From IMG/VR virus record IMGVR_UViG_3300037307_000721: a stretch of DNA of 64,000 nucleotides. The stretch is one strand, 5' to 3'. Each line of letters begins with the position of its first letter. Within the stretch, counting starts at the first letter, position 1. The stretch comes from a virus. A model generated the notes under the pieces. The model ran no database searches. It saw only the letters and a list, made by a program, of their open reading frames with translations, and was not told where the DNA came from. The translations under genes and the position numbers were made by a program. Shown here piece by piece: positions 3,176 through 42,332 of the stretch.

Positions 3176-3540
3176 ACGGACTCGACCCCGAGCTCGCCGC
3201 CTTCCTGCGCTTCGAGCACTATCAGAAGTACGAGGCGCTCGCCCAGAAGCTGGGCATCGAGAAGCTCAAGACCGCGGTCATGTTCGCCCTGGGCCTGTGC
3301 TGCCACGCCGACCCAGTGGCGTACTTGCGCGAGCAGCTGCGCCTGGACCGTGCGCTCAACCGCATTCCGCTCCGCCAGTGGGACGCGCAGGAACCCAGGG
3401 TGCGAGCGCTTCTCCGCCGTGCCGGCGGGGGAGTCATGTCGTCCTGCGAATCCGTCTGCGTGCTCAAGCACGTGGCCACGCATCACGTCGTCGGAGAGTC
3501 GGCCCCGGAGCCGGCGCCCGACCCAAGGAGAAAACCATGA
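3172..3540 (+). CDS. hypothetical protein
   Basis: ATGA coupling. Confidence 0.7.
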   Translation: MNGLDPELAAFLRFEHYQKYEALAQKLGIEKLKTAVMFALGLCCHADPVAYLREQLRLDRALNRIPLRQWDAQEPRVRALLRRAGGGVMSSCESVCVLKHVATHHVVGESAPEPAPDPRRKP

Positions 3541-3785
3541 AGACGCCCGAGGAACTCAGCCGCGAGGAGCTCGTCCAGATCGTCGGCGGTGTCCAGCAGG
3601 TGCTGTGGCTGGACCACGTCGAGGGCCAGGGGTTCTGCTTCGTCCCCGACAAGGAGTGGGAGTCCGACACCATCGAGCACGTCGCTCAAGTGCTGGCCGA
3701 CCACGACCTGCGGCCGAGCGGCACCACGCCGTTCGAGAACCAGCCCGAGGCCGACCGCGAGGTCGACCCCTCGGATGTGGGCTGA
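3537..3785 (+). CDS. hypothetical acidic protein
   Basis: AGGAG SD and ATGA overlap. Confidence 0.7.
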   Translation: MKTPEELSREELVQIVGGVQQVLWLDHVEGQGFCFVPDKEWESDTIEHVAQVLADHDLRPSGTTPFENQPEADREVDPSDVG

Positions 3786-3897
3786 CCTCCTCGCGCTGCT
3801 CGTCGCCTGCGTCGTCTTCGCCTGCTACGCGACGGTGATCGAGATGTACGCCGACTGGTGGCGCGAGAAGCACCCGAAGAAGGAGCGAGAACCATGA
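3775..3897 (+). CDS. small single-pass membrane protein
   Basis: MWADLLALLVACVVFACYATVIEM hydrophobic helix, then a basic tail. Confidence 0.55.
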   Translation: MWADLLALLVACVVFACYATVIEMYADWWREKHPKKEREP

Positions 3898-4274
3898 TCG
3901 TCGTCGTGGCCGTGATGGGCGAGTGCTGCACCCGTCCACACCTCAAGGTCGTCGAAGTGCCGAACAGCGGCCCGGACCGCGCCGTCACCATCGCCAAGCG
4001 CTACCTCGAGTTCGCCGACGAGGGCTGGGAGCCGAACGATGCCATCGTCGTCCCGGATGGCGAGATGGAACCGCCCGACTACACCGTCCCCGAGAACGAG
4101 CTCATCGGCTGGGGTCTGGAGCCGGGCGACGAGGTGAAGTGGAACGACCCGGACGAGGGCCGATGCAGCCGCATCCTCAAGGTCAAGAGCGTGGAATTTC
4201 TCGGCGAGAGCGCCATCAGCATCATGGAAGAGGATGGCTCGGTCGTCGAGTGCTACGCACGGGAGCTCGCATGA
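3894..4274 (+). CDS. hypothetical protein
   Basis: AAGGAG SD, ATGA overlap. Confidence 0.7.
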   Translation: MIVVVAVMGECCTRPHLKVVEVPNSGPDRAVTIAKRYLEFADEGWEPNDAIVVPDGEMEPPDYTVPENELIGWGLEPGDEVKWNDPDEGRCSRILKVKSVEFLGESAISIMEEDGSVVECYARELA

Positions 4275-4429
4275 AGGTCAAGTGCCAAAACTGCGGATGG
4301 ACTGGCCCGCAGGCCAAGTGCAAGGAGATCAAACATCTCACCCAGCGCGTGGCGGTGGGCGAGCCAATGCCCGCCGGTGAGTGCCCGAAGTGTGGCGCGC
4401 TCTGCCACCCGGTGGAGAAAGAGCGGTAA
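4271..4429 (+). CDS. small zinc-ribbon protein
   Basis: CQNCGW...GECPKCGALC. Confidence 0.7.
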   Translation: MKVKCQNCGWTGPQAKCKEIKHLTQRVAVGEPMPAGECPKCGALCHPVEKER

Positions 4430-4432
4430 GCC

Positions 4433-4963
4433 GTGAGCGTGAAGGTGTGGGCCCTCCTGGTGGGGCCCGAGGACGTGACGACGCGGGACGGCAAGACCGT
4501 GGGCAAGACGCCCGAGGTCGAGCGCGACATGGCGCACGCCGACATGGTCGTGTTCCTGGTGAACGACGACGTGGTCACCTGGGTCAAGAAGCCGAAGATG
4601 CCCAAGCCCGAGCCCGTTGCCAAGGCCGTGGCCACGCAACGCTTCGCCGAGCTCGAGACCACGATCGAAGAGGAGCCGAGGAAGGCACCCGCTCCGGTAC
4701 CGGTGACGCAGGCCAAGCCGGTCGTCACGCAGAGCCAGCCCGCGACCGCACCGACCTGGCGTCGCTTCGAGTGCGTCCGCGGGACCTCGAACAAGTTCTG
4801 GGAGATCACTCTCCAGGGCTCGAAGTACACAACGCGCTGGGGCCGCATCGGGACCGACGGCTCCGTCACGGTCAAGGAGTGGGGCTCGGACTACGAGGCC
4901 CGCTGCGAGTACCGGAAGATCATCGACTCCAAGCTGGCCAAGGGATACCGGGAGATCCGGTAG
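4433..4963 (+). CDS. WGR domain-containing protein
   Basis: C-terminal SNKFWEITLQG...TTRWGRIGTDG...KLAKGYRE is a textbook WGR signature, after a Pro/Ala linker. Confidence 0.85.
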   Translation: MSVKVWALLVGPEDVTTRDGKTVGKTPEVERDMAHADMVVFLVNDDVVTWVKKPKMPKPEPVAKAVATQRFAELETTIEEEPRKAPAPVPVTQAKPVVTQSQPATAPTWRRFECVRGTSNKFWEITLQGSKYTTRWGRIGTDGSVTVKEWGSDYEARCEYRKIIDSKLAKGYREIR

Positions 4964-4977
4964 AAAGGACAAGCACG

Positions 4978-5220
4978 ATGGACGAGACCGAGGGAACGCG
5001 CAGGGTCATGCAAGCCGTGGTCAACGCCGACGCCGAGGAGCGCAAGGCGACCGAGGAGAAGTACGGACAGGTCTGGGACACGCAGGAGCTCGGACGCGAC
5101 TTCGAGGTGCTCGGCTTCGCCGCGCCCTTCGTGGTGGTCAAGCGCAAGGCGGATGGGGTGAAGGGCTCGCTCATGTTCCAGCACAGCCCGCGCTACTACT
5201 TCAGCTTCACGCCGGCCTAG
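4978..5220 (+). CDS. conserved small hypothetical protein (GQVWDT...FQHSPRYYF)
   Basis: AAAGGA SD; GC3 bias. Confidence 0.75.
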   Translation: MDETEGTRRVMQAVVNADAEERKATEEKYGQVWDTQELGRDFEVLGFAAPFVVVKRKADGVKGSLMFQHSPRYYFSFTPA

Positions 5221-5222
5221 CC

Positions 5223-5462
5223 ATGGCCGGACGCGACAAGACCGCCGGCGAGAGCCGGCTCAAGAAGGTCCTTGCCCTGCTCAACGGCGCATTCGTCATC
5301 CTGGCTGAGCCGGCGAACGAAGAGGGCGAGGAGTGGATCGGGCTCAGCTTCATGCTCAAGACCGGCGAGGAAGTCTCCTTCGTCGTGGCACGCGACGATG
5401 AGAGCAACGGCCCGGGCGCGCTGCTCGGGCTGTGGGACTTCGCCAGAAAGCACGGGATCTGA
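5223..5462 (+). CDS. hypothetical protein
   Basis: packed ORF. Confidence 0.65.
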   Translation: MAGRDKTAGESRLKKVLALLNGAFVILAEPANEEGEEWIGLSFMLKTGEEVSFVVARDDESNGPGALLGLWDFARKHGI

Positions 5463-6247
5463 TGACGCAGCTCTGGGACCTGACCGGTGAGAAGAAGCTC
5501 ATCGGGGACTCGGACGAAGGCATCGAGCTCGTCGACGACGGGACCAAGGTGTCGGAGAACGGCTTCCCGCTCGACCTGTCCTCGCTCATCCAGCGCTTTC
5601 GCGACAAGGAGGACAAGCTCGAGGACGAGGTGCAGTTCTTCTCGCGAAACACCGAGCTCGTGGCCAGCCCGAAGGGCTTGGTCGAAGTCCCTCGGCGCCG
5701 GACCAAGCGCTACGAGAAGCTCGGTAGGGCACCGGTGGTCGGTCTGAAAGAGGGCGTCGACCTCGAGAAGATTCCGCACCGCGAGTGCACGCCGCGGGTC
5801 AAGGCCGAGAAGATGATGAGCCCGGAGAGCCGGCTCAAGCGAAGAGAGCAGGGACTCGAGCCTGGTCCGGAGCTCGAAGAGGACGGTCCCTACAACGCGC
5901 TGGGCGTGCCCTACGACATGCTCAAGGACCAGGACGAGCCGCCCTCGCCACCGCCCGAGCCAGAGTACGAGATCACCGCGGACTGCGGATGGCTCTCGCC
6001 GGACGGCAAGTTCTACCGCTGCGCCTACATGGAGCACATCTCGCTGGCCATCCGGCTGGGCATGGACGAGGTGCGCCTCGAGAAGCTCGGCTGGGTCAAG
6101 GTGCAAGAGAACAAGTTCTGGGGCGACCTACTCTGCGAGGGCGGCGAGCGCGCCAAGGTCACGCAGAAGCAGCGCGACCTGGTCTTCGACTATTGCACCA
6201 AGAATGGCCTCCAGCTCCCAAGCTGGATGGCTCCCGAGGAGGACTGA
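5462..6247 (+). CDS. hypothetical protein
   Basis: TGATG coupling; long GC3-biased ORF. Confidence 0.75.
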   Translation: MTQLWDLTGEKKLIGDSDEGIELVDDGTKVSENGFPLDLSSLIQRFRDKEDKLEDEVQFFSRNTELVASPKGLVEVPRRRTKRYEKLGRAPVVGLKEGVDLEKIPHRECTPRVKAEKMMSPESRLKRREQGLEPGPELEEDGPYNALGVPYDMLKDQDEPPSPPPEPEYEITADCGWLSPDGKFYRCAYMEHISLAIRLGMDEVRLEKLGWVKVQENKFWGDLLCEGGERAKVTQKQRDLVFDYCTKNGLQLPSWMAPEED

Positions 6248-6249
6248 TC

Positions 6250-6927
6250 ATGGGCGAGCGCTACAATCCACTGGCCGAGGGCCACGTCGAGCCCGCCGGC
6301 AAGGACGCGAAGGGCCGCCAGACCTGGACGCTGACGGTGGAAGGCCTTCGCCAGCAGGCCATGGTTGAGGACGAGCTCCGCAACCTGGGCTATGTGCAGA
6401 ACGAGGCCGGCCTGTGGGTGCACGACCCGCAAGCTCGCGAGGAGCTCGGCCTCGAGGCGCTTGCCATGGAGGAGTACGAGCGGCTGCTCGGCAAGACCGT
6501 GCGCGTGAACCAGTTGCTTGGCTACACGAACCGCGACTTCTCCGAGGAGAAATCCGGGGACTTCGTGGTGCGCATCGACGCAACGCCACGCAGCGACGTC
6601 TTGCGCTGGGTCGACGACTGGCTCGACCCGGTCTACAACGTGACCGTCCTCGAGGCCAACGGCCTGCCCGGCCGAAGCCCGCTGCGCAGCTGTTGGATCT
6701 ACGGCAAGTCGTACCACCGAGGCGTGGCGCACGAGACTCAGCCGGGGTCGATCGCGGAAGAGATCTGTCAGCACGAGCCGGACATCGACACGCTGGCTTT
6801 GCCGCACGACCTGCACCCCGAGACGCACGATGGGCGCATCGAGTTCGTCATCGACGTGGTGTGCTCGAAGTGCGGCACGTCCGGGTCCTTCGCGGTGACG
6901 GTGAGCCCCGAAGACATCAACTGGTGA
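6250..6927 (+). CDS. hypothetical multi-module protein with C-terminal CxH...CxKCG module
   Basis: GGAGG SD; CQHEPD...CSKCGTSG. Confidence 0.7.
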   Translation: MGERYNPLAEGHVEPAGKDAKGRQTWTLTVEGLRQQAMVEDELRNLGYVQNEAGLWVHDPQAREELGLEALAMEEYERLLGKTVRVNQLLGYTNRDFSEEKSGDFVVRIDATPRSDVLRWVDDWLDPVYNVTVLEANGLPGRSPLRSCWIYGKSYHRGVAHETQPGSIAEEICQHEPDIDTLALPHDLHPETHDGRIEFVIDVVCSKCGTSGSFAVTVSPEDINW

Positions 6928-26524: not shown

Positions 26525-27358
26525 ATGCGAATCGACGTCGAGACGGGCGCCTTCTGGGCGACCATCGTCGGCTCGGAGGGAGAGCTTGACCAGGTCGTCG
26601 GCAAGCTGCGCGAGTTCGCCGCCGAGCTCGCGCCGAGCGGCCAGGCCCGGTCCCTCTGCCTCCGCACGCCTGGGCACCTTCGGGTGCCCGCCGGCGCGGT
26701 GCTCCTGCTGGAGGACCGGCCCGGGGTCCTGAGCGCCCGGGGCTCGGAGCTGGCCGAAGCCGGAGCCAAGCACCTCGAGGCCGCGGGTCTCCTTCGGGAC
26801 TACCAGGCCCGCGCGGTCGGGGCTGCCCTGACCGCACCCCTGGGCCGCGCCACGGTGGACGTGGTGATGGGCGGCGGCAAGACCCGCATCGCGGCCGCCC
26901 TGGCCGCGGTGGCCCAGGCGGTGGGTGGCTTCGGGGCCTGGCTGTACCTGGTCCAGAACGGGGAGCTCGCGCGCCAGGCGGAGGCCGAGATCGCCGAGCT
27001 GCTGCCCATGATGGCCGCGCGCCTCGGCGGACCGCCGGCCCAGGTGACGGCCACCACCTACTCCGGCATCAAGAAGCTGCCGAGCAAGCACTTCGCCGGC
27101 GTCATCGTGGACGAGTGCCACCTGCTGCCGGCGCCAACTCGCTGCCTGCCCTTCGCGCTGGTCAAGGCGACCTGGCGCATCGGATTGTCTGGGACACTCC
27201 TGGACAGGACGGATACGAAGAACGCGCTAATCATTGCGCTGCTTGGCCCACGGGTGTGCGAGGTGAAGATTCCCGAGCTCGAAGAGCAGGAGCACCTCGC
27301 GCGCGGCCGCGTCCAGGTTCTTCGCTATGACCATCGGCTGAAGCGCCTTGTCTCGTAG
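26525..27358 (+). CDS. SF2 (SSL2/ResIII-like) helicase, N-terminal half (RecA1 domain)
   Basis: LRDYQ Q-motif, VMGGGKT motif I, DECH motif II, LSGT motif III; ends at TAG. Confidence 0.85.
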   Translation: MRIDVETGAFWATIVGSEGELDQVVGKLREFAAELAPSGQARSLCLRTPGHLRVPAGAVLLLEDRPGVLSARGSELAEAGAKHLEAAGLLRDYQARAVGAALTAPLGRATVDVVMGGGKTRIAAALAAVAQAVGGFGAWLYLVQNGELARQAEAEIAELLPMMAARLGGPPAQVTATTYSGIKKLPSKHFAGVIVDECHLLPAPTRCLPFALVKATWRIGLSGTLLDRTDTKNALIIALLGPRVCEVKIPELEEQEHLARGRVQVLRYDHRLKRLVS

Positions 27359-27421: not shown

Positions 27422-27450
27422 TTCGTCTAATGATGTGGAGGACGTATGAT
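27422..27450 (+). promoter_or_regulatory. internal promoter between the helicase halves
   Basis: TTCGTC-N17-TATGAT, then an AGGAGG SD before ATG 27467. Confidence 0.55.
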
Positions 27451-27466
27451 TAGGAGGTTACATTCC

Positions 27467-28228
27467 ATGCACGACCGAGCCGGCAGAACGAAATACGACC
27501 GGCTCGTCGTCGAGGACCCTTACCGTACTGACGCGCTGTGTCGATTCATCGCAGATCTGGAACGTAAGGGCGAGTGGCCGGGCATCGTCTTCGTCCGCAA
27601 GCGGCGCCACGCGGAGCTCTTCGCGAAGGCGCTCAGCGCGGTCCTGGGCAAGCAGATCCCGGCGGTGACCTCGGCGGCGACCTCGCGCCAGGAGCGCGAG
27701 GCGCTGGCTGACCGCATGCGCCGGCGCGACCCGAGCCTGCCCGCGGCGGTCGCGACCGCCGTCTGGTCGACCGGCCTGAACGTCCCGAGCCTGTCCTGGG
27801 TCATGATGGCGGGGGCCGGCCAGGCGCCCATCGGCCTGAAGCAAAGCGCCGGCCGCGCGACCAGGCTCGCGGAGGAGAAGGCCGGCTACACCATCTACGA
27901 CGTCCAGGACGTCGGCCCGGGGCTCGAGTGGGCTCAGGAGCAGGCCGCCCAGCGGATGCGGCACTACGCGGCGGCTGGCTTCGCGGTGGACGAGGTTCGA
28001 CCGCAGGGCGAGGAGCTGGACGACGAAGACGCGATGGCCCTGGCCGACCTGCTCGCCCTCGAGGACCAACTGCCAGCCGCATCGGGGGGCGCGCGCGCCC
28101 CGCCTGTGGACGACCGGACGCAGCGGGGCATGGAGATCGGCGGCAAGCTCGCTGGCTGGTTCTTGGCGCTCCTGGGCTTCGTCCTGTTCTTCATGCTCTA
28201 CGTGACCTGCGGACGCGCTTGCAAATAG
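27467..28228 (+). CDS. SF2 helicase, C-terminal half (RecA2 domain) with C-terminal hydrophobic helix
   Basis: GIVFV motif IV, ATAVWSTGLNVP motif V, QSAGRATR motif VI; tail LAGWFLALLGFVLFFMLYVTC. Confidence 0.8.
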   Translation: MHDRAGRTKYDRLVVEDPYRTDALCRFIADLERKGEWPGIVFVRKRRHAELFAKALSAVLGKQIPAVTSAATSRQEREALADRMRRRDPSLPAAVATAVWSTGLNVPSLSWVMMAGAGQAPIGLKQSAGRATRLAEEKAGYTIYDVQDVGPGLEWAQEQAAQRMRHYAAAGFAVDEVRPQGEELDDEDAMALADLLALEDQLPAASGGARAPPVDDRTQRGMEIGGKLAGWFLALLGFVLFFMLYVTCGRACK

Positions 28229-38428: not shown

Positions 38429-39097
38429 ATGGCATTTCTACCCGTCAACCTGCTCAACGTCCAGCCCGCCGTCGGTTTCGACTACCCCGTCGGCCGGTAC
38501 CTGCTCAACATCATCGGGACCGAGATCCGGACCAACACCAGCGGCGATGGCCAGCGGCTGGTCCTGAACCTCGAGATCGTGATGGGCCCCGGGCCGGGCA
38601 ACGTGCAGTTCCAGGGCCGGAAGACCTTCCACAGCTTCCAGCTCACCGAGAAGGGCCTGCCCTTCCTCAAGCGCTTCTTCAACGTCTGCGGCATCACCGA
38701 GGAGTTCATCAACCAGAACGGTGGCAACGTCGACAACGAGTGGCTGCACGGTCGCCAGTTCTGCGCGACGAGCGTGAAGAACGGCCAGTACGTCAACTGG
38801 ACCAACGAGAAGCCCGCGGCCGAGTGGAACCAGCAGCCCGCCCCGCAGGCTGCCAGGGCCGCGACGGCGGCCCCGCAGGCCGCGCCGCCCCCGGCGCTCC
38901 TGCAGCCCAGCCCGCAGGCCCAGGCTGCTCCGCAGCCCATGGCCTACGTCTCGCCGACCCCGCAGCCGCAGTACGCGCCGCCGCCGCAGCAGATGGCGCC
39001 GGCCGGTCTGCCCACCCCGCAGCTGCCGCAGCCGCAGGGCGGCATCCCCGTCGGCATTCCCGCCCCGGTTCCCCCTCCGGGCCGGGTCGGGCAGTAG
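38429..39097 (+). CDS. DUF669-like single-stranded DNA-binding protein with Pro/Gln-rich tail
   Basis: PVGRYLLNI...LVLNLEIVMGP...GRKTFHSF...LHGRQF; AGGAGG SD; synteny with the Sak4-like ATPase. Confidence 0.75.
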   Translation: MAFLPVNLLNVQPAVGFDYPVGRYLLNIIGTEIRTNTSGDGQRLVLNLEIVMGPGPGNVQFQGRKTFHSFQLTEKGLPFLKRFFNVCGITEEFINQNGGNVDNEWLHGRQFCATSVKNGQYVNWTNEKPAAEWNQQPAPQAARAATAAPQAAPPPALLQPSPQAQAAPQPMAYVSPTPQPQYAPPPQQMAPAGLPTPQLPQPQGGIPVGIPAPVPPPGRVGQ

Positions 39098-39114
39098 GCT
39101 GATGCACTGACGCC

Positions 39115-39192
39115 AACGGGCGGCCTGGGTGGATGCTCTCACACATAGGGGCGCATCACCCCAAGCCGCTCAGGCCGCCCGTTACTTTTTTT
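39115..39192 (+). terminator. extended stem-loop with U-tract (terminator, attenuator or RNase III site)
   Basis: perfect 13-bp arms AACGGGCGGCCTG (39115-39127) and CAGGCCGCCCGTT (39171-39183), inner GATGC/GCATC stem, T7 at 39186-39192. Confidence 0.7.
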
Positions 39193-39204
39193 CAAAGGTC
39201 AGCC

Positions 39205-39474
39205 ATGCCTGAAGTCACCGAAGACATCGAGATCACCTGCGAGTGCGGGAACAAGTTCTTCTTCACCGTCAAGGACGCCGAGTTCTACCGGCGCACCTTC
39301 GGCGAGAACTTCAGTATTCCCAAGCGCTGCAAGCCCTGTCGCGAAGCGCGCAAGGCGGCCAAGGAACGCGAGGCTGCCGAGGACTTCGGCCAGGGCACGC
39401 GCAGCGGTCGCTTCCCCTCCGACCATCCCAACCAGGGCAACAAGCCCAAGCGACAGCGGAACGGCAACAGGTGA
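39205..39474 (+). CDS. zinc-ribbon protein (zf-trcl-like)
   Basis: DIEITCECGNKFFFTVKDAEFY...PKRCKPCREARK. Confidence 0.8.
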   Translation: MPEVTEDIEITCECGNKFFFTVKDAEFYRRTFGENFSIPKRCKPCREARKAAKEREAAEDFGQGTRSGRFPSDHPNQGNKPKRQRNGNR

Positions 39475-40037
39475 GCTGGACGCCCGCATACGGTAGGGAC
39501 CGCGGTCCCTACTACCACGGGCTTCTGGCACAACCCGACTGTGAGAGCTGTCCCCTTCGCTACGACGTCAAGGTCTTCCCCGACGGCCCCGTCCCCGCGC
39601 GCATCGCCTTCATCGGCGAGGAGCCTGGGCAGACGGAGATCGCCGAGGGCCGCGGGTTCGTGGGCCAGTCGGGGCAACTCCTGTGGCACCTTGCTCGCGA
39701 CGTCGGCCTCGAGCGCGACGACATCTGGGTCTCGAACGCCGCGCTCTGCGCCGCCCGCAAGGTCAAGCTCAACACCGGCGCCAATCTTCCCCAGCTCGTC
39801 GTGAAGGCCATGGCGGCCAAGGCCTGCCGCCGGCGCCTTCTCGCCGAGCTCGTCACGGTGGACCCGATCGTCGTGGTGCCGCTCGGCAACTGGGCACTGT
39901 GGGCCACCTCGGACATCCCGAACGCGCGCATCTACGCCTACCGCGGCTCGCGGATCGAAGTCGACCTGGCCAAGCTCCTCGAGCTCGTGCAGCAGGGCCT
40001 GTCGCGCTCGCCGATGCGCACCGTCAAGGAGCAATGA
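39471..40037 (+). CDS. uracil-DNA glycosylase family 4-like domain, lacking the C-terminal HP motif
   Basis: CESCPL, FIGEEPG, FVGQSG, SNAALC, ACRRRL..E..VDP.VVVPLG. Confidence 0.85.
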   Translation: MSWTPAYGRDRGPYYHGLLAQPDCESCPLRYDVKVFPDGPVPARIAFIGEEPGQTEIAEGRGFVGQSGQLLWHLARDVGLERDDIWVSNAALCAARKVKLNTGANLPQLVVKAMAAKACRRRLLAELVTVDPIVVVPLGNWALWATSDIPNARIYAYRGSRIEVDLAKLLELVQQGLSRSPMRTVKEQ

Positions 40038-40038
40038 G

Positions 40039-40299
40039 ATGCAAGTCCGAACCCTGCACAAGCAGCTGGGTGAGCTCATCGCGAAAGGCTACGGGCACAA
40101 CGACGTCGTCATCAACAAGGACACGTTCCGGCATCCGCTCGAACCAGACGGTTGCGTGCTCCTGCCCGTGATCCGGGCCGAGGCCGGCTACTTTCGCGTG
40201 CTCGATGGCGATGGCGGCACCAAGTACAACAAGGACGGTTCCGAGCGCATGCGTTCGGGTGTCATTCTGCTCGGCGAGCACGCGCCTCTGGAGAGCTGA
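40039..40299 (+). CDS. small hypothetical protein between the UDG domain and the polymerase
   Basis: translationally coupled at both ends (TGAgATG, TGATG). Confidence 0.65.
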   Translation: MQVRTLHKQLGELIAKGYGHNDVVINKDTFRHPLEPDGCVLLPVIRAEAGYFRVLDGDGGTKYNKDGSERMRSGVILLGEHAPLES

Positions 40300-42332
40300 T
40301 GGCCTACCTGGTGCCCACCGTCCATCCGGCAGCGCTGCTTCGCGGCGGGCACCCGATTGCCGACGTCATTCGGATGGACCTCGCCAAGGCGCATCGGCTC
40401 ACCATGGAGCCACCGCGCCAGGTCGAGAACATCGTGGTCGTCCATCCGGCGAACCCCGCCGGCGTGACCGAGTCTGTGCGAATCGGGCTCGCCTGGCTCG
40501 AGCGATGGATTTCGCTCCGCTGTCCGGTCGCGGTCGACGTCGAGACCTCGAGCCTGAACTACTTCAACTGCAAGCTCTACTCCATCGCGCTCTCGGGCTG
40601 CGACGGCGAGAACACCGCTGTGGCCTTCACGCTGATGGACCTGCGGACTCTGCCCTGGGACGCCGAGCTTGCAATGCTGGACGCACTGCGCCGGCTGCTC
40701 GCGGACCCACAGATCGTCAAGCTCTTTCACAACGCGCCCTACGACTACGCGGTCCTGCATTGCAAGAACCTCCCGGTCCACGGCCCGATCGAAGACACGC
40801 AGGGCTTCGCGCACCTCTTCCAGCCGGATATTCCGAAGGACCTCGGCTTCATCGGCCACACCTGGCTCGACGTCGAGCCGTGGAAGCTCAACCACTCCGG
40901 CGAAAAGCAGGCCTACACCAAGGACGTGATCGAGCTCCTGGTCTACAACGCGAAGGACGCGCTCAACACGATGAAGCTCCGCGCCCCGTTGCTGGCTGCG
41001 CTCGCGGACAGATGCGGCTCGCCCGACGTGATCTTCTACCAGAACGCTTTCGCGCAGCTCGCCGCACGGATGGAGCTGGTCGGCCTACCCATGGACCTGG
41101 ACATTCGGCGCAAGGTGGGCGCCGAGCAGCTGGCCAGACTTGAGGAGCTCCGGTATCGCATGCGCGAGTACCTCAAGTGGCCCGACTTCAACCCGATGAA
41201 CAAGAACCACGCGGTCGCGGCGCTCTACGACAAGAAGTACGTCGGGCTGATGCCCACCGCCTGGACGCCCAAGACGAAGCAGCCCTCGACGAAGTACGAG
41301 CACATCATCGACCACATGGAGCACGTCTTCGTCAAGGACTTCGTCGAGTACGTGGAGTCGCACCACGCCTATGCGACCCAGTACCGCGAGGCTCCGGAGA
41401 AGTCGAGCGACCCCGGACCGGGCGCTTACACGCGCGCCATGCAGGAGGACGGCCGCCTGCACGCGAAGTGGAACCCGACCGGGCAGAAGGGCTCACGTTT
41501 CTCCAGCGAGCCCAACGTGCAGAACCAGCGCAAGAAGGATCGCGTCTTCTTTCGCGCACCCTATGGCCGCGTGTTCGTCGGGGCCGACAAGGACCAGCTC
41601 GAGCTTCGGCTGGCCGCCGTCCTCTCGGGCGTGCGTGAAATCCTCGATGAGGTCGCCAAGCCCGACGGCGACCCGCACCGTCTGGCCGCGATCAACATCT
41701 ACGGCAAGGGCTTTCTCGAGCGCTCGAAGGAAGAGCAGAAGCGCATGCGCGACGCGATCAAGACCACGGTCTATGCGTCGCTCTACCGCGCCGGCGTCAA
41801 GACGGTGCACAAGTCGATCCGGAAGAAGAAGTTCCTCGACCACGCACTGCGCGCCAGCCTGACCCTCGACGTCGTCGGCCACATCTACCACAGCTACTTC
41901 GGCAAGTACGTCGAGATCCCCGCGTGGCACGATCGGAACTACGACCTCGCCCAGACGCAGGGCTACCTGGAGATCCAGCCCCTCGGTCGACGCCGGTACT
42001 TTCCGGTCCAGCCGCCGCCCTACACCGAGGTGGCGAACTGGCCCATTCAGACCACGGGTTCGGACATCGTCGGCATGGAGATGGTGCTGGTGCAGGACGA
42101 GCTCGACCGCCGGTTCCACGGCGACGCGAGCATCGTCCTGCACGGCCATGACGCGCTCTACATCGAGTGCGCCGAGCGCCACGCCGAAGAAGTCTGCGGC
42201 ATCGTGAACCGGCTCTTCGGCGCGACGCGCGTCGAGGGCCCGGCTGGCCCGGTGCTGCTCACCGCCTCGGCCGAGATCTGCAAGGACCTCAAGTTCGACA
42301 AGAAGGATGTCTGGGTGCCAAAGGCAGCCTAG
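40299..42332 (+). CDS. polA: family A DNA polymerase with 3'-5' exonuclease and an N-terminal UDG remnant
   Basis: Exo I VDVET, Exo II FHNAPYD, Exo III YNAKDA; motif A DKDQLELR, motif B RDAIKTTVYASLY, motif C HGHDA. Confidence 0.92.
   Translation: MAYLVPTVHPAALLRGGHPIADVIRMDLAKAHRLTMEPPRQVENIVVVHPANPAGVTESVRIGLAWLERWISLRCPVAVDVETSSLNYFNCKLYSIALSGCDGENTAVAFTLMDLRTLPWDAELAMLDALRRLLADPQIVKLFHNAPYDYAVLHCKNLPVHGPIEDTQGFAHLFQPDIPKDLGFIGHTWLDVEPWKLNHSGEKQAYTKDVIELLVYNAKDALNTMKLRAPLLAALADRCGSPDVIFYQNAFAQLAARMELVGLPMDLDIRRKVGAEQLARLEELRYRMREYLKWPDFNPMNKNHAVAALYDKKYVGLMPTAWTPKTKQPSTKYEHIIDHMEHVFVKDFVEYVESHHAYATQYREAPEKSSDPGPGAYTRAMQEDGRLHAKWNPTGQKGSRFSSEPNVQNQRKKDRVFFRAPYGRVFVGADKDQLELRLAAVLSGVREILDEVAKPDGDPHRLAAINIYGKGFLERSKEEQKRMRDAIKTTVYASLYRAGVKTVHKSIRKKKFLDHALRASLTLDVVGHIYHSYFGKYVEIPAWHDRNYDLAQTQGYLEIQPLGRRRYFPVQPPPYTEVANWPIQTTGSDIVGMEMVLVQDELDRRFHGDASIVLHGHDALYIECAERHAEEVCGIVNRLFGATRVEGPAGPVLLTASAEICKDLKFDKKDVWVPKAA

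Follow-up and report, generated by a model that had tools for sequence, protein, structure and literature searches.

A phage uracil-DNA glycosylase domain cut within its fold, with its His-Pro motif at the N-terminus of the adjoining family-A DNA polymerase

The window, a 64,000-nucleotide stretch of the IMG/VR virus record IMGVR_UViG_3300037307_000721 (111 kb in all, judged 67% complete), carries a chain of four genes on its + strand, in which the conserved motifs of a single uracil-DNA glycosylase (UDG) domain are distributed over two polypeptides. The genes encode a treble-clef zinc-finger protein (zf_Tbcl), the N-terminal part of a UDG (UDG-N in the following), an 86-residue protein and a family-A DNA polymerase (PolA), and they are linked to each other by overlapping or abutting stop and start codons (table 1). 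Thus, the GTG of UDG-N (39471) overlaps the TGA of the zinc-finger gene in the sequence GTGA, and the ATG of PolA (40299) overlaps the stop of the 86-residue open reading frame (ORF) in the sequence TGATG. This ORF lies in the +1 frame, has its own Shine-Dalgarno sequence (AAGGAG, 40026-40031) 7 nt before its ATG and, with guanine plus cytosine (GC) fractions of 0.70/0.37/0.81 by codon position in a genome of 65% GC, shows the pattern of a real gene.

UDG-N is incomplete at its C-terminal side. It covers only positions 1-97 of the 141 of the PF03167 profile, and the family-4 UDGs of the PDB align to its residues 20-165 only. Within these limits it carries the four Cys of the iron-sulfur (Fe-S) cluster motif (CxxC, LC, AC), GEEPG (motif A), FVGQSG and SN, and its 3′ end encodes the β-hairpin strand RGSRIEVDL, followed by a variable tail of 22 residues. 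Motif B, HP(S/A), is missing from UDG-N and is found instead as H9-P10-A11 of PolA. The N-terminus of the latter reads MAYLVPTVHPAALLRGG...DLAKAHRL, so that its residues 1-38 comprise a β-strand (YLVPT), the His-Pro of motif B (H9-P10) and a last helix (DLAKAHRL); PolA is modelled with a Klenow-like fold (Z 32). UDG-N and PolA are in a common frame (both starts are divisible by 3), but the UDG, exonuclease and polymerase domains are not in one chain here, since two in-frame stops and a separate gene intervene. A second UDG was searched for in the 111-kb record and none was found. An earlier note on this DNA had described the motifs of UDG-N, the lack of motif B, the start of PolA, the common frame and the coupled 86-residue gene, and all of these observations are borne out, including that of a further in-frame stop, as TGA is present both at 40035 and at 40071.

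Table 1. Features of the locus in the window, contents of the gap between UDG-N and PolA in the window and in related loci (L numbers), and members of the GGS[FY] small-ORF family (aa, amino acids).
Feature	Position	Strand	Basis or content
zf_Tbcl treble-clef zinc-finger gene, 113 aa	39133..39474	+	Pfam PF13451, E 7.5e-9
UDG-N, 188 aa, GTG start	39471..40037	+	Pfam UDG PF03167, E 7e-16
Two in-frame TGA stops between the UDG-N and PolA frames	40035-40037 and 40071-40073	+	translation
86-aa ORF of unknown function, in the gap	40039..40299	+	coding-type GC by codon position
PolA, family-A DNA polymerase, 677 aa, ATG start	40299..42332	+	Pfam PF01612, PF00476
C-terminal piece of the UDG fold (PolA residues 1-38)	40299..40412	+	aligns with fused UDG C-terminus
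Gap, window			86-aa ORF
Gap, L001			116-aa ORF
Gap, L003			96-aa and 85-aa ORFs
Gap, L005			121-aa ORF
Gap, L006			nothing: TAG, one codon (3 nt), GTG
Gap, L007			298-aa ORF
Gap, L008			103-aa ORF
Gap, L009			113-aa ORF
Gap, L013			806 nt
Gap, L014			>3.4 kb, including a 905-aa ORF
Gap, L018			1176 nt, three ORFs
GGS[FY] ORF, L003	L003:3453-3743
GGS[FY] ORF, L008	L008:756-1067
GGS[FY] ORF, L009	L009:3340-3681
GGS[FY] ORF, L014	L014:4042-4269
GGS[FY] ORF, L015	L015:4629-4886

How the two pieces relate to a UDG fold was addressed by structure prediction. Because both in-frame stops are TGA, translation with code table 4 reads 39471-42329 as one chain of 953 residues with a junk linker of 88 residues, and this read-through was used as a modelling device. 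The first AlphaFold2 model, based on an alignment of split, paired and fused relatives, has a mean predicted local distance difference test score (pLDDT) of 89 and a predicted template modelling score of 0.87, with UDG-N at ~96 (residues 20-180), the linker below 50 and the PolA N-terminus at ~90-95. On comparison with 48,161 solved chains, model residues 10..314, namely UDG-N together with PolA residues 1-38, align with 185 of the 191 residues of the Thermotoga maritima UDG (1L9G; Z 21.8); UdgX (Z 20.9) and the fused polymerase of YerA41 (671 residues, Z 15.7, root mean square deviation 6.4 Å) are also matched. As the fused homologues could have dictated this result, a control model of 516 residues was made from an alignment without any fused protein; its pLDDT is 86, and its residues 18..314 match residues 11..191 of 1L9G with Z 20.1 and a root mean square deviation of 2.4 Å over 177 aligned positions. 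In both models PolA residues 1-38 superpose on the C-terminal residues of 1L9G (to 191), and in the predicted structure the UDG fold takes its last core strand, its His-Pro loop and its final helix from them. The complete α/β fold of the UDG superfamily is reached in these models only by the composite of UDG-N and PolA 1-38. Foldseek applied to the 953-residue model returned only Klenow-type polymerases, with no aligned ranges, and was uninformative for the UDG part.

The tail that follows RGSRxEVDL deserves a separate comment. The earlier note had pointed to a DLAK helix at the end of UDG-N itself, and such a helix is indeed present in the sequence and in the AlphaFold model (residues 166-174), but it does not duplicate the C-terminal helix now found on PolA. 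In relatives the tail is of 0-25 variable residues, and it aligns with a loop insertion in fused sister proteins. That it might be a duplicated C-terminal helix, or a gene end recoded by a mobile cassette, was considered and rejected, given that conservation there is limited to xDL.

The split is shared across a clade of about 100 uncultivated relatives. When PolA was used as a query against protein clusters, 96 related ones were obtained (37-78% identity, nearly all of ~670 residues). About 83 of these 96 polymerases begin at an identical residue. The motif pattern is present in 82, the His mostly lying near residue 9, while one more has a variant motif and the rest have shifted start calls or are cut by contig ends. 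HP(A/S) is present in 79 of the 82 N-termini matched by the regular expression, and the N-terminal 38 residues are among the best-conserved parts of PolA. The gene neighbourhoods of seven PolA relatives were inspected along with loci found by scanning IMG/VR with the UDG-N alignment. In this sample 13 distinct related loci carry the same truncated UDG gene, whose product closes with ...YRGSRxE(V/I)D(L) and a variable stretch of 0-25 residues, and PolA begins with the next strand, xYxIPTxHPA, in all 11 split loci that show it. The order of genes recurs in the 13 distinct loci as SNF2 helicase, AAA_24, an unknown gene, (zinc finger), UDG-N, gap and PolA; the zf_Tbcl gene, a conserved neighbour in several relatives, is 5′ of UDG-N also in L001, L002 and L004. 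Loci in which UDG-N is at least 39% identical to that of the window are split, and every more distant locus is a single fused ORF. Thus, the fused allele that the earlier note had suggested looking for among relatives exists in outgroups, but none was found in the main split clade among the 96 PolA clusters and the 13 distinct loci, L017 being ambiguous. In this more distant relative the UDG ORF (L017:3170-3901) and the PolA frame (3478-5907) overlap by more than 400 nt and the HP motif follows 36 nt past the UDG stop, which might reflect a frameshift site, a sequencing error or a genuine split with a non-ATG start. This type of polymerase is absent from deposited phages; a nucleotide search of the phage collection with 39471-42332 gave no match, and a protein search with PolA gave only two weak partial matches (32% over 39%).

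Fused UDG-PolA replicases are known from SPO1-like, SP15-like and N4-like cluster 17 phages (Czernecki et al. 2023, PMC10201439; Missoury et al. 2026, PMC13697223), and it is from such a protein that the two genes appear to derive. Fused UDG-PolAs align colinearly with the pieces, residues ~7-153 to UDG-N and ~166 onward to PolA from its residue 1-4, with only the hairpin turn separating the two matches. When the proteins were searched exhaustively with UDG-N, the top ~30 representatives proved to be short and of the split type, with inteins lengthening some of them; fused UDG-PolAs of 750-930 residues come next. In a tree of PolA rooted on bacterial Pol I, the 32 split proteins form one clade, with a support of 100 in the Shimodaira-Hasegawa-like approximate likelihood ratio test (SH-aLRT); its successive outgroups are an eight-member fused clade, P0177, and then P0097 with other fused proteins. 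A second tree places the distant split locus L018 within the split clade and L017, tentatively, at its base. The nesting of the PolA tree and the colinear alignment of both pieces speak for common descent with the fused forms, and the breakpoint is identical in all sampled relatives in which both pieces are seen, in agreement with the fused UDG-PolA ancestor postulated by the earlier note. As the split clade is monophyletic and lies inside the fused UDG-PolAs, one old gene fission in a fused ancestor is indicated as the simplest reading. The earlier interpretation was, therefore, largely right, but its scale was wrong: the fission is ancient and clade-wide, and not peculiar to this genome.

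Both halves have been kept under purifying selection since then. Identities to the window in seven loci are, for UDG-N and PolA respectively, 71/78, 60/67, 56/56, 49/47, 45/45, 52/50 and 55/55%, and so the identity of UDG-N tracks that of PolA locus by locus. The ratio of nonsynonymous to synonymous substitution rates (dN/dS) lies at 0.21-0.30 in UDG-N and at 0.20 in PolA, dS being close to saturation. The four Cys predicted to bind a [4Fe-4S] cluster (C24, C27, C93 and C119 in the numbering of alignment A3) do not vary among 21 split-type UDG-N sequences, nor do several core residues, and GExPG, the Phe and the Asn are nearly invariant. Decay of the UDG piece, an outcome that the earlier note had set against its own proposal, fits poorly with this selection and with the retention of the catalytic and Fe-S residues. 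Inteins interrupt UDG-N in some relatives, at GEEPG|C...HN|S in P0119 and directly before the third Fe-S Cys in P0122 and P0123, positions that are typical of inteins in functionally constrained motifs. Two of the inteins in the set formed by P0119, P0121, P0122 and P0123 have LAGLIDADG domains. Among the PolA relatives, P0003, P0006, P0015, P0018 and others are of 980-1090 residues, and from the length and the pattern of coverage it is probable that many related polymerases contain inteins as well.

In contrast with the halves themselves, what lies between them changes from locus to locus, and the gap ORFs are mostly unrelated to one another (table 1). Neither the 86-residue ORF nor seven gap ORFs of relatives matched a family in Pfam or PHROG, a search by which small divergent endonucleases could be missed. 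For the 86-residue protein, Pfam gave only a sub-threshold match to FlgE (E 0.037) and PHROGs gave none, and the nearest atlas clusters are viral hypothetical-protein families. Only two homologues are found, at 54% identity, both among unrelated small genes on other contigs, and the gene is at the gap site in none of the sampled relatives. The earlier note had attributed the split to the insertion of this gene. Such a role does not survive the comparison, in that unrelated ORFs, several ORFs, more than 3.4 kb or as little as 3 nt are at the same place in relatives; the gene as agent of the split was rejected, being missing at the site in the sampled relatives and present in other contexts. Because its only two homologues are both in unrelated contexts, it appears from the sequence comparisons to be a recent passenger, an incidental cargo and not the cause of the split. 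One of these homologues is adjoined by a 144-residue ORF with HNH-like Cys/His motifs (L010:1080-1514), and small genes belonging to this family may move together with homing endonucleases. A different family of small ORFs, of ~75-113 residues and marked by GGS[FY], is found directly after UDG-N in five loci (table 1), often overlapping its end; it has no match in Pfam or PHROG and is not in the window. As these loci belong to different subclades, the GGS[FY] ORF may be the oldest occupant of the gap, or it may be a partner protein. In L014 the 905-residue ORF (4127-6844), of unknown function, follows UDG-N, and PolA is not within 3.4 kb downstream.

Taken together, a phage UDG-PolA replicase has here undergone an old, fixed fission within its UDG domain, and the two resulting proteins are likely to form a docked, two-subunit composite glycosylase. 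The cut lies in the turn of the β-hairpin that precedes the last core strand. UDG-N carries the Fe-S motif, motif A and the Phe and Asn of the uracil pocket, and the first ~38 residues of the polymerase retain the last strand, the catalytic His-Pro loop and the final helix. The zinc-finger protein, UDG-N, the 86-residue protein and PolA would be made by coupled translation through their overlapping or abutting stop and start codons, and UDG-N could then dock on the PolA N-terminus by strand complementation. The result of docking would be a single, complete UDG domain whose active site is composite and which, as in the fused UDG-PolAs, sits on the polymerase; this domain might inspect the template for uracil ahead of synthesis, as the fused SP15-like enzymes do (PMC13697223). 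The gap left by the fission has become a changing slot for small accessory genes, of which the 86-residue gene is the present occupant. The suggestion of the earlier note that the glycosylase is whole only on the polymerase fits the partition of motif A, Phe and Asn to UDG-N and of His-Pro to PolA, as well as the two models in which the fold is rebuilt, and the enzyme is probably complete only when the two proteins dock. That the pair is a two-protein glycosylase by which uracil is excised only at the replisome, and that the seam is, across the clade, a landing pad for accessory genes, is a more tentative proposition, for which we would claim somewhat less than an even chance.

Other explanations are conceivable. 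The reassembled UDG domain could be catalytically dead and serve as a structural or processivity module, as proposed for the N4-like UDG-PolAs, which keep the domain without its catalytic residues (PMC10201439). Neither a thymidylate synthase nor a dUTPase was found in the 111-kb record, and hence there is no sign of a T-modified genome; with the record ~67% complete, however, their absence is weak evidence. The split clade, unlike the N4-like enzymes, keeps motif A, the Phe, the Asn, the His-Pro and the four Cys, and a dead domain is, on balance, unlikely. A related question is whether the pieces cooperate at all, because UDG-N could act alone, for example as a binder of uracil or DNA or in some new role, or be decaying, with the PolA N-terminus as a structural remnant packed on the exonuclease domain. 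Such independence would agree with the lack of motif B in UDG-N, with the distance of more than 3.4 kb that can separate the halves (L014) and with the loss of the Pro of HP in some relatives. It agrees poorly with a UDG-N that, without a core strand and the last helix, is nonetheless conserved at the rate of PolA, with the high conservation of the 38 N-terminal residues of PolA and of HP(A/S) within them, with the position of these residues in the UDG fold, and not on the exonuclease domain, in both models, and with the targeting of UDG-N motifs by inteins; we consider it quite improbable.

It could also be argued that the phage still produces a single fused protein, through splicing of an intron or intein, through ribosomal bypass, through read-through or through the use of TGA as a Trp codon. 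In favour of this are the shared frame of UDG-N and PolA and the fact that the two stops between them are both TGA; yet TGA ends eight of the 17 checked genes of the window, including those of SNF2 and TerL, at normal lengths, and is therefore an ordinary stop here, while the linker that read-through would produce is Arg-rich and disordered, with pLDDT below 50. A code with TGA as Trp was rejected on these grounds. In L006 only a TAG and one codon separate the halves, and the frames agree in six of the 11 distinct split loci showing PolA, one third being expected by chance. Against this, a coding-type ORF in another frame fills the gap of the window, and in relatives the length of the gap varies between 3 nt and more than 3.4 kb, its content is unrelated, and other frames and TAA stops occur. 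No Rfam family, and hence no group I or group II intron family, is matched in 39000-41000 at E values up to 1; the 3-nt gap of L006 and the mostly unrelated contents of the gaps also argue against an intron, so that the splicing-out of the insert, which the earlier note had allowed for, is not borne out. As for inteins, no intein blocks are present, the tail of UDG-N is of 0-25 residues and PolA opens directly with the UDG strand. A split intein was rejected, as UDG-N of L007 ends exactly at VVDL and PolA is without an HN-C/S/T junction. The persistence of a single fused product is, thus, very improbable.

The reading of the two proteins as a docked composite glycosylase has its own weak points. 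Both models are single chains with an artificial linker of 88 residues, and AlphaFold may simply be recalling the UDG fold. Catalytic competence is presumed from the motifs, and, as the N4-like UDG-PolAs illustrate, a domain of this kind can have a purely structural role (PMC10201439). HLA or HTA replaces HPA in a few relatives, which implies that the activity may not be needed everywhere. The more than 3.4 kb between the halves in L014 weakens the idea of a tight co-translation, and the trees are quick searches, with SH-aLRT only and ~35 UDG C-terminal columns retained. As to the distribution of the HLA form, it is found in L018 (2138-4375), where an insertion also follows the motif, and in P0080, a hint that certain lineages may have abandoned the glycosylase chemistry.

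With the fused UDG-PolAs, which excise template uracil ahead of the fork (PMC10201439, PMC13697223) and among which the SP15-like enzymes of YerA41 and phiLo have been solved (PDB 9QLH and 9QHS; PMC13697223), the system shares a family-4 UDG fold placed N-terminal of the exonuclease and polymerase domains. The PolA of the window nests among these fusions, and the system resembles the SPO1-like and SP15-like enzymes in having retained the catalytic motifs. It differs from them in that the UDG domain is cut within its fold into two genes; in addition, the large inserts of the SP15-like enzymes are not in the PolA of the window, which is only ~30% identical to the nearest fused forms. The free-standing family-4 UDGs (T. 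maritima TM0511, 1L9G; Thermus thermophilus UDGA, 1UI0; Mycobacterium smegmatis UdgX, 6AIL) are at 30-34% identity and match the composite model with Z 19-22, having in common with it the four-Cys Fe-S motif, GExPG, FxGxxG, the Asn and HP(S/A). They are, however, single chains of ~190-210 residues, whereas here the last ~38 residues are on another protein.

Gene fission has precedents among phage replication enzymes. In T7-like cyanophages (S-SBP1-like) the exonuclease and polymerase parts of PolA are encoded by separate genes, and AlphaFold predicts their reassembly (Czernecki et al. 2023, PMC10201439). There, as here, a phage PolA is split at the gene level with the new termini at a loop, but the S-SBP1-like cut falls between two domains with no gene between the halves, whereas the present one is intradomain, divides the active site and leaves a gap with changing cargo. 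Genes in pieces are also known from T4-like phages, as in nrdA of Aeh1, which is split by mobE, and in gp39/gp60 of T4. 'Fractured genes' with split inteins have been reported (Dassa et al. 2009, PMC2677866). The likeness lies in an essential enzyme of replication or nucleotide metabolism that is interrupted inside a domain by an intervening ORF and whose halves are expected to reassemble, and the difference in that neither a homing endonuclease family nor split-intein halves are detected here in the gap or at the new termini and that the content of the gap depends on the lineage. In full-text literature searches no description of a UDG split or truncated next to PolA came up, and UDG is not mentioned by Yutin et al. 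2024. A cut inside the UDG fold, with motifs A and B on different proteins and a changing cargo in the seam, was found neither there nor in the papers on the fused UDG-PolAs (PMC10201439, PMC13697223).

If the halves reassemble, they would constitute a natural split enzyme, a glycosylase conditional on binding to the polymerase, and would make it possible to test cleanly whether the UDG needs to be seated on the polymerase in order to function, besides providing a natural model of fragment complementation. The clade would also provide an example of a gene fission that creates a stable slot for accessory genes, and it divides a UDG domain through the fold and yet keeps both halves under long selection. 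In routine annotation such polymerases would be labelled as plain PolA, and the upstream gene as a truncated or partial UDG.

Two further observations concern the surroundings of the locus. Between AAA_24 and the zinc-finger gene, a 222-residue ORF (38429-39097, + strand) with a Pro/Gln/Ala-rich tail has no match in Pfam or PHROG; its position allows a guess that it is a single-strand-binding protein. Elsewhere in the window a second enzyme of the same phage is split, two adjacent ORFs on the + strand encoding the ResIII/ATPase half of a helicase (26525-27358; Pfam E 6e-8) and its Helicase_C half (27446-28228; E 2e-10).

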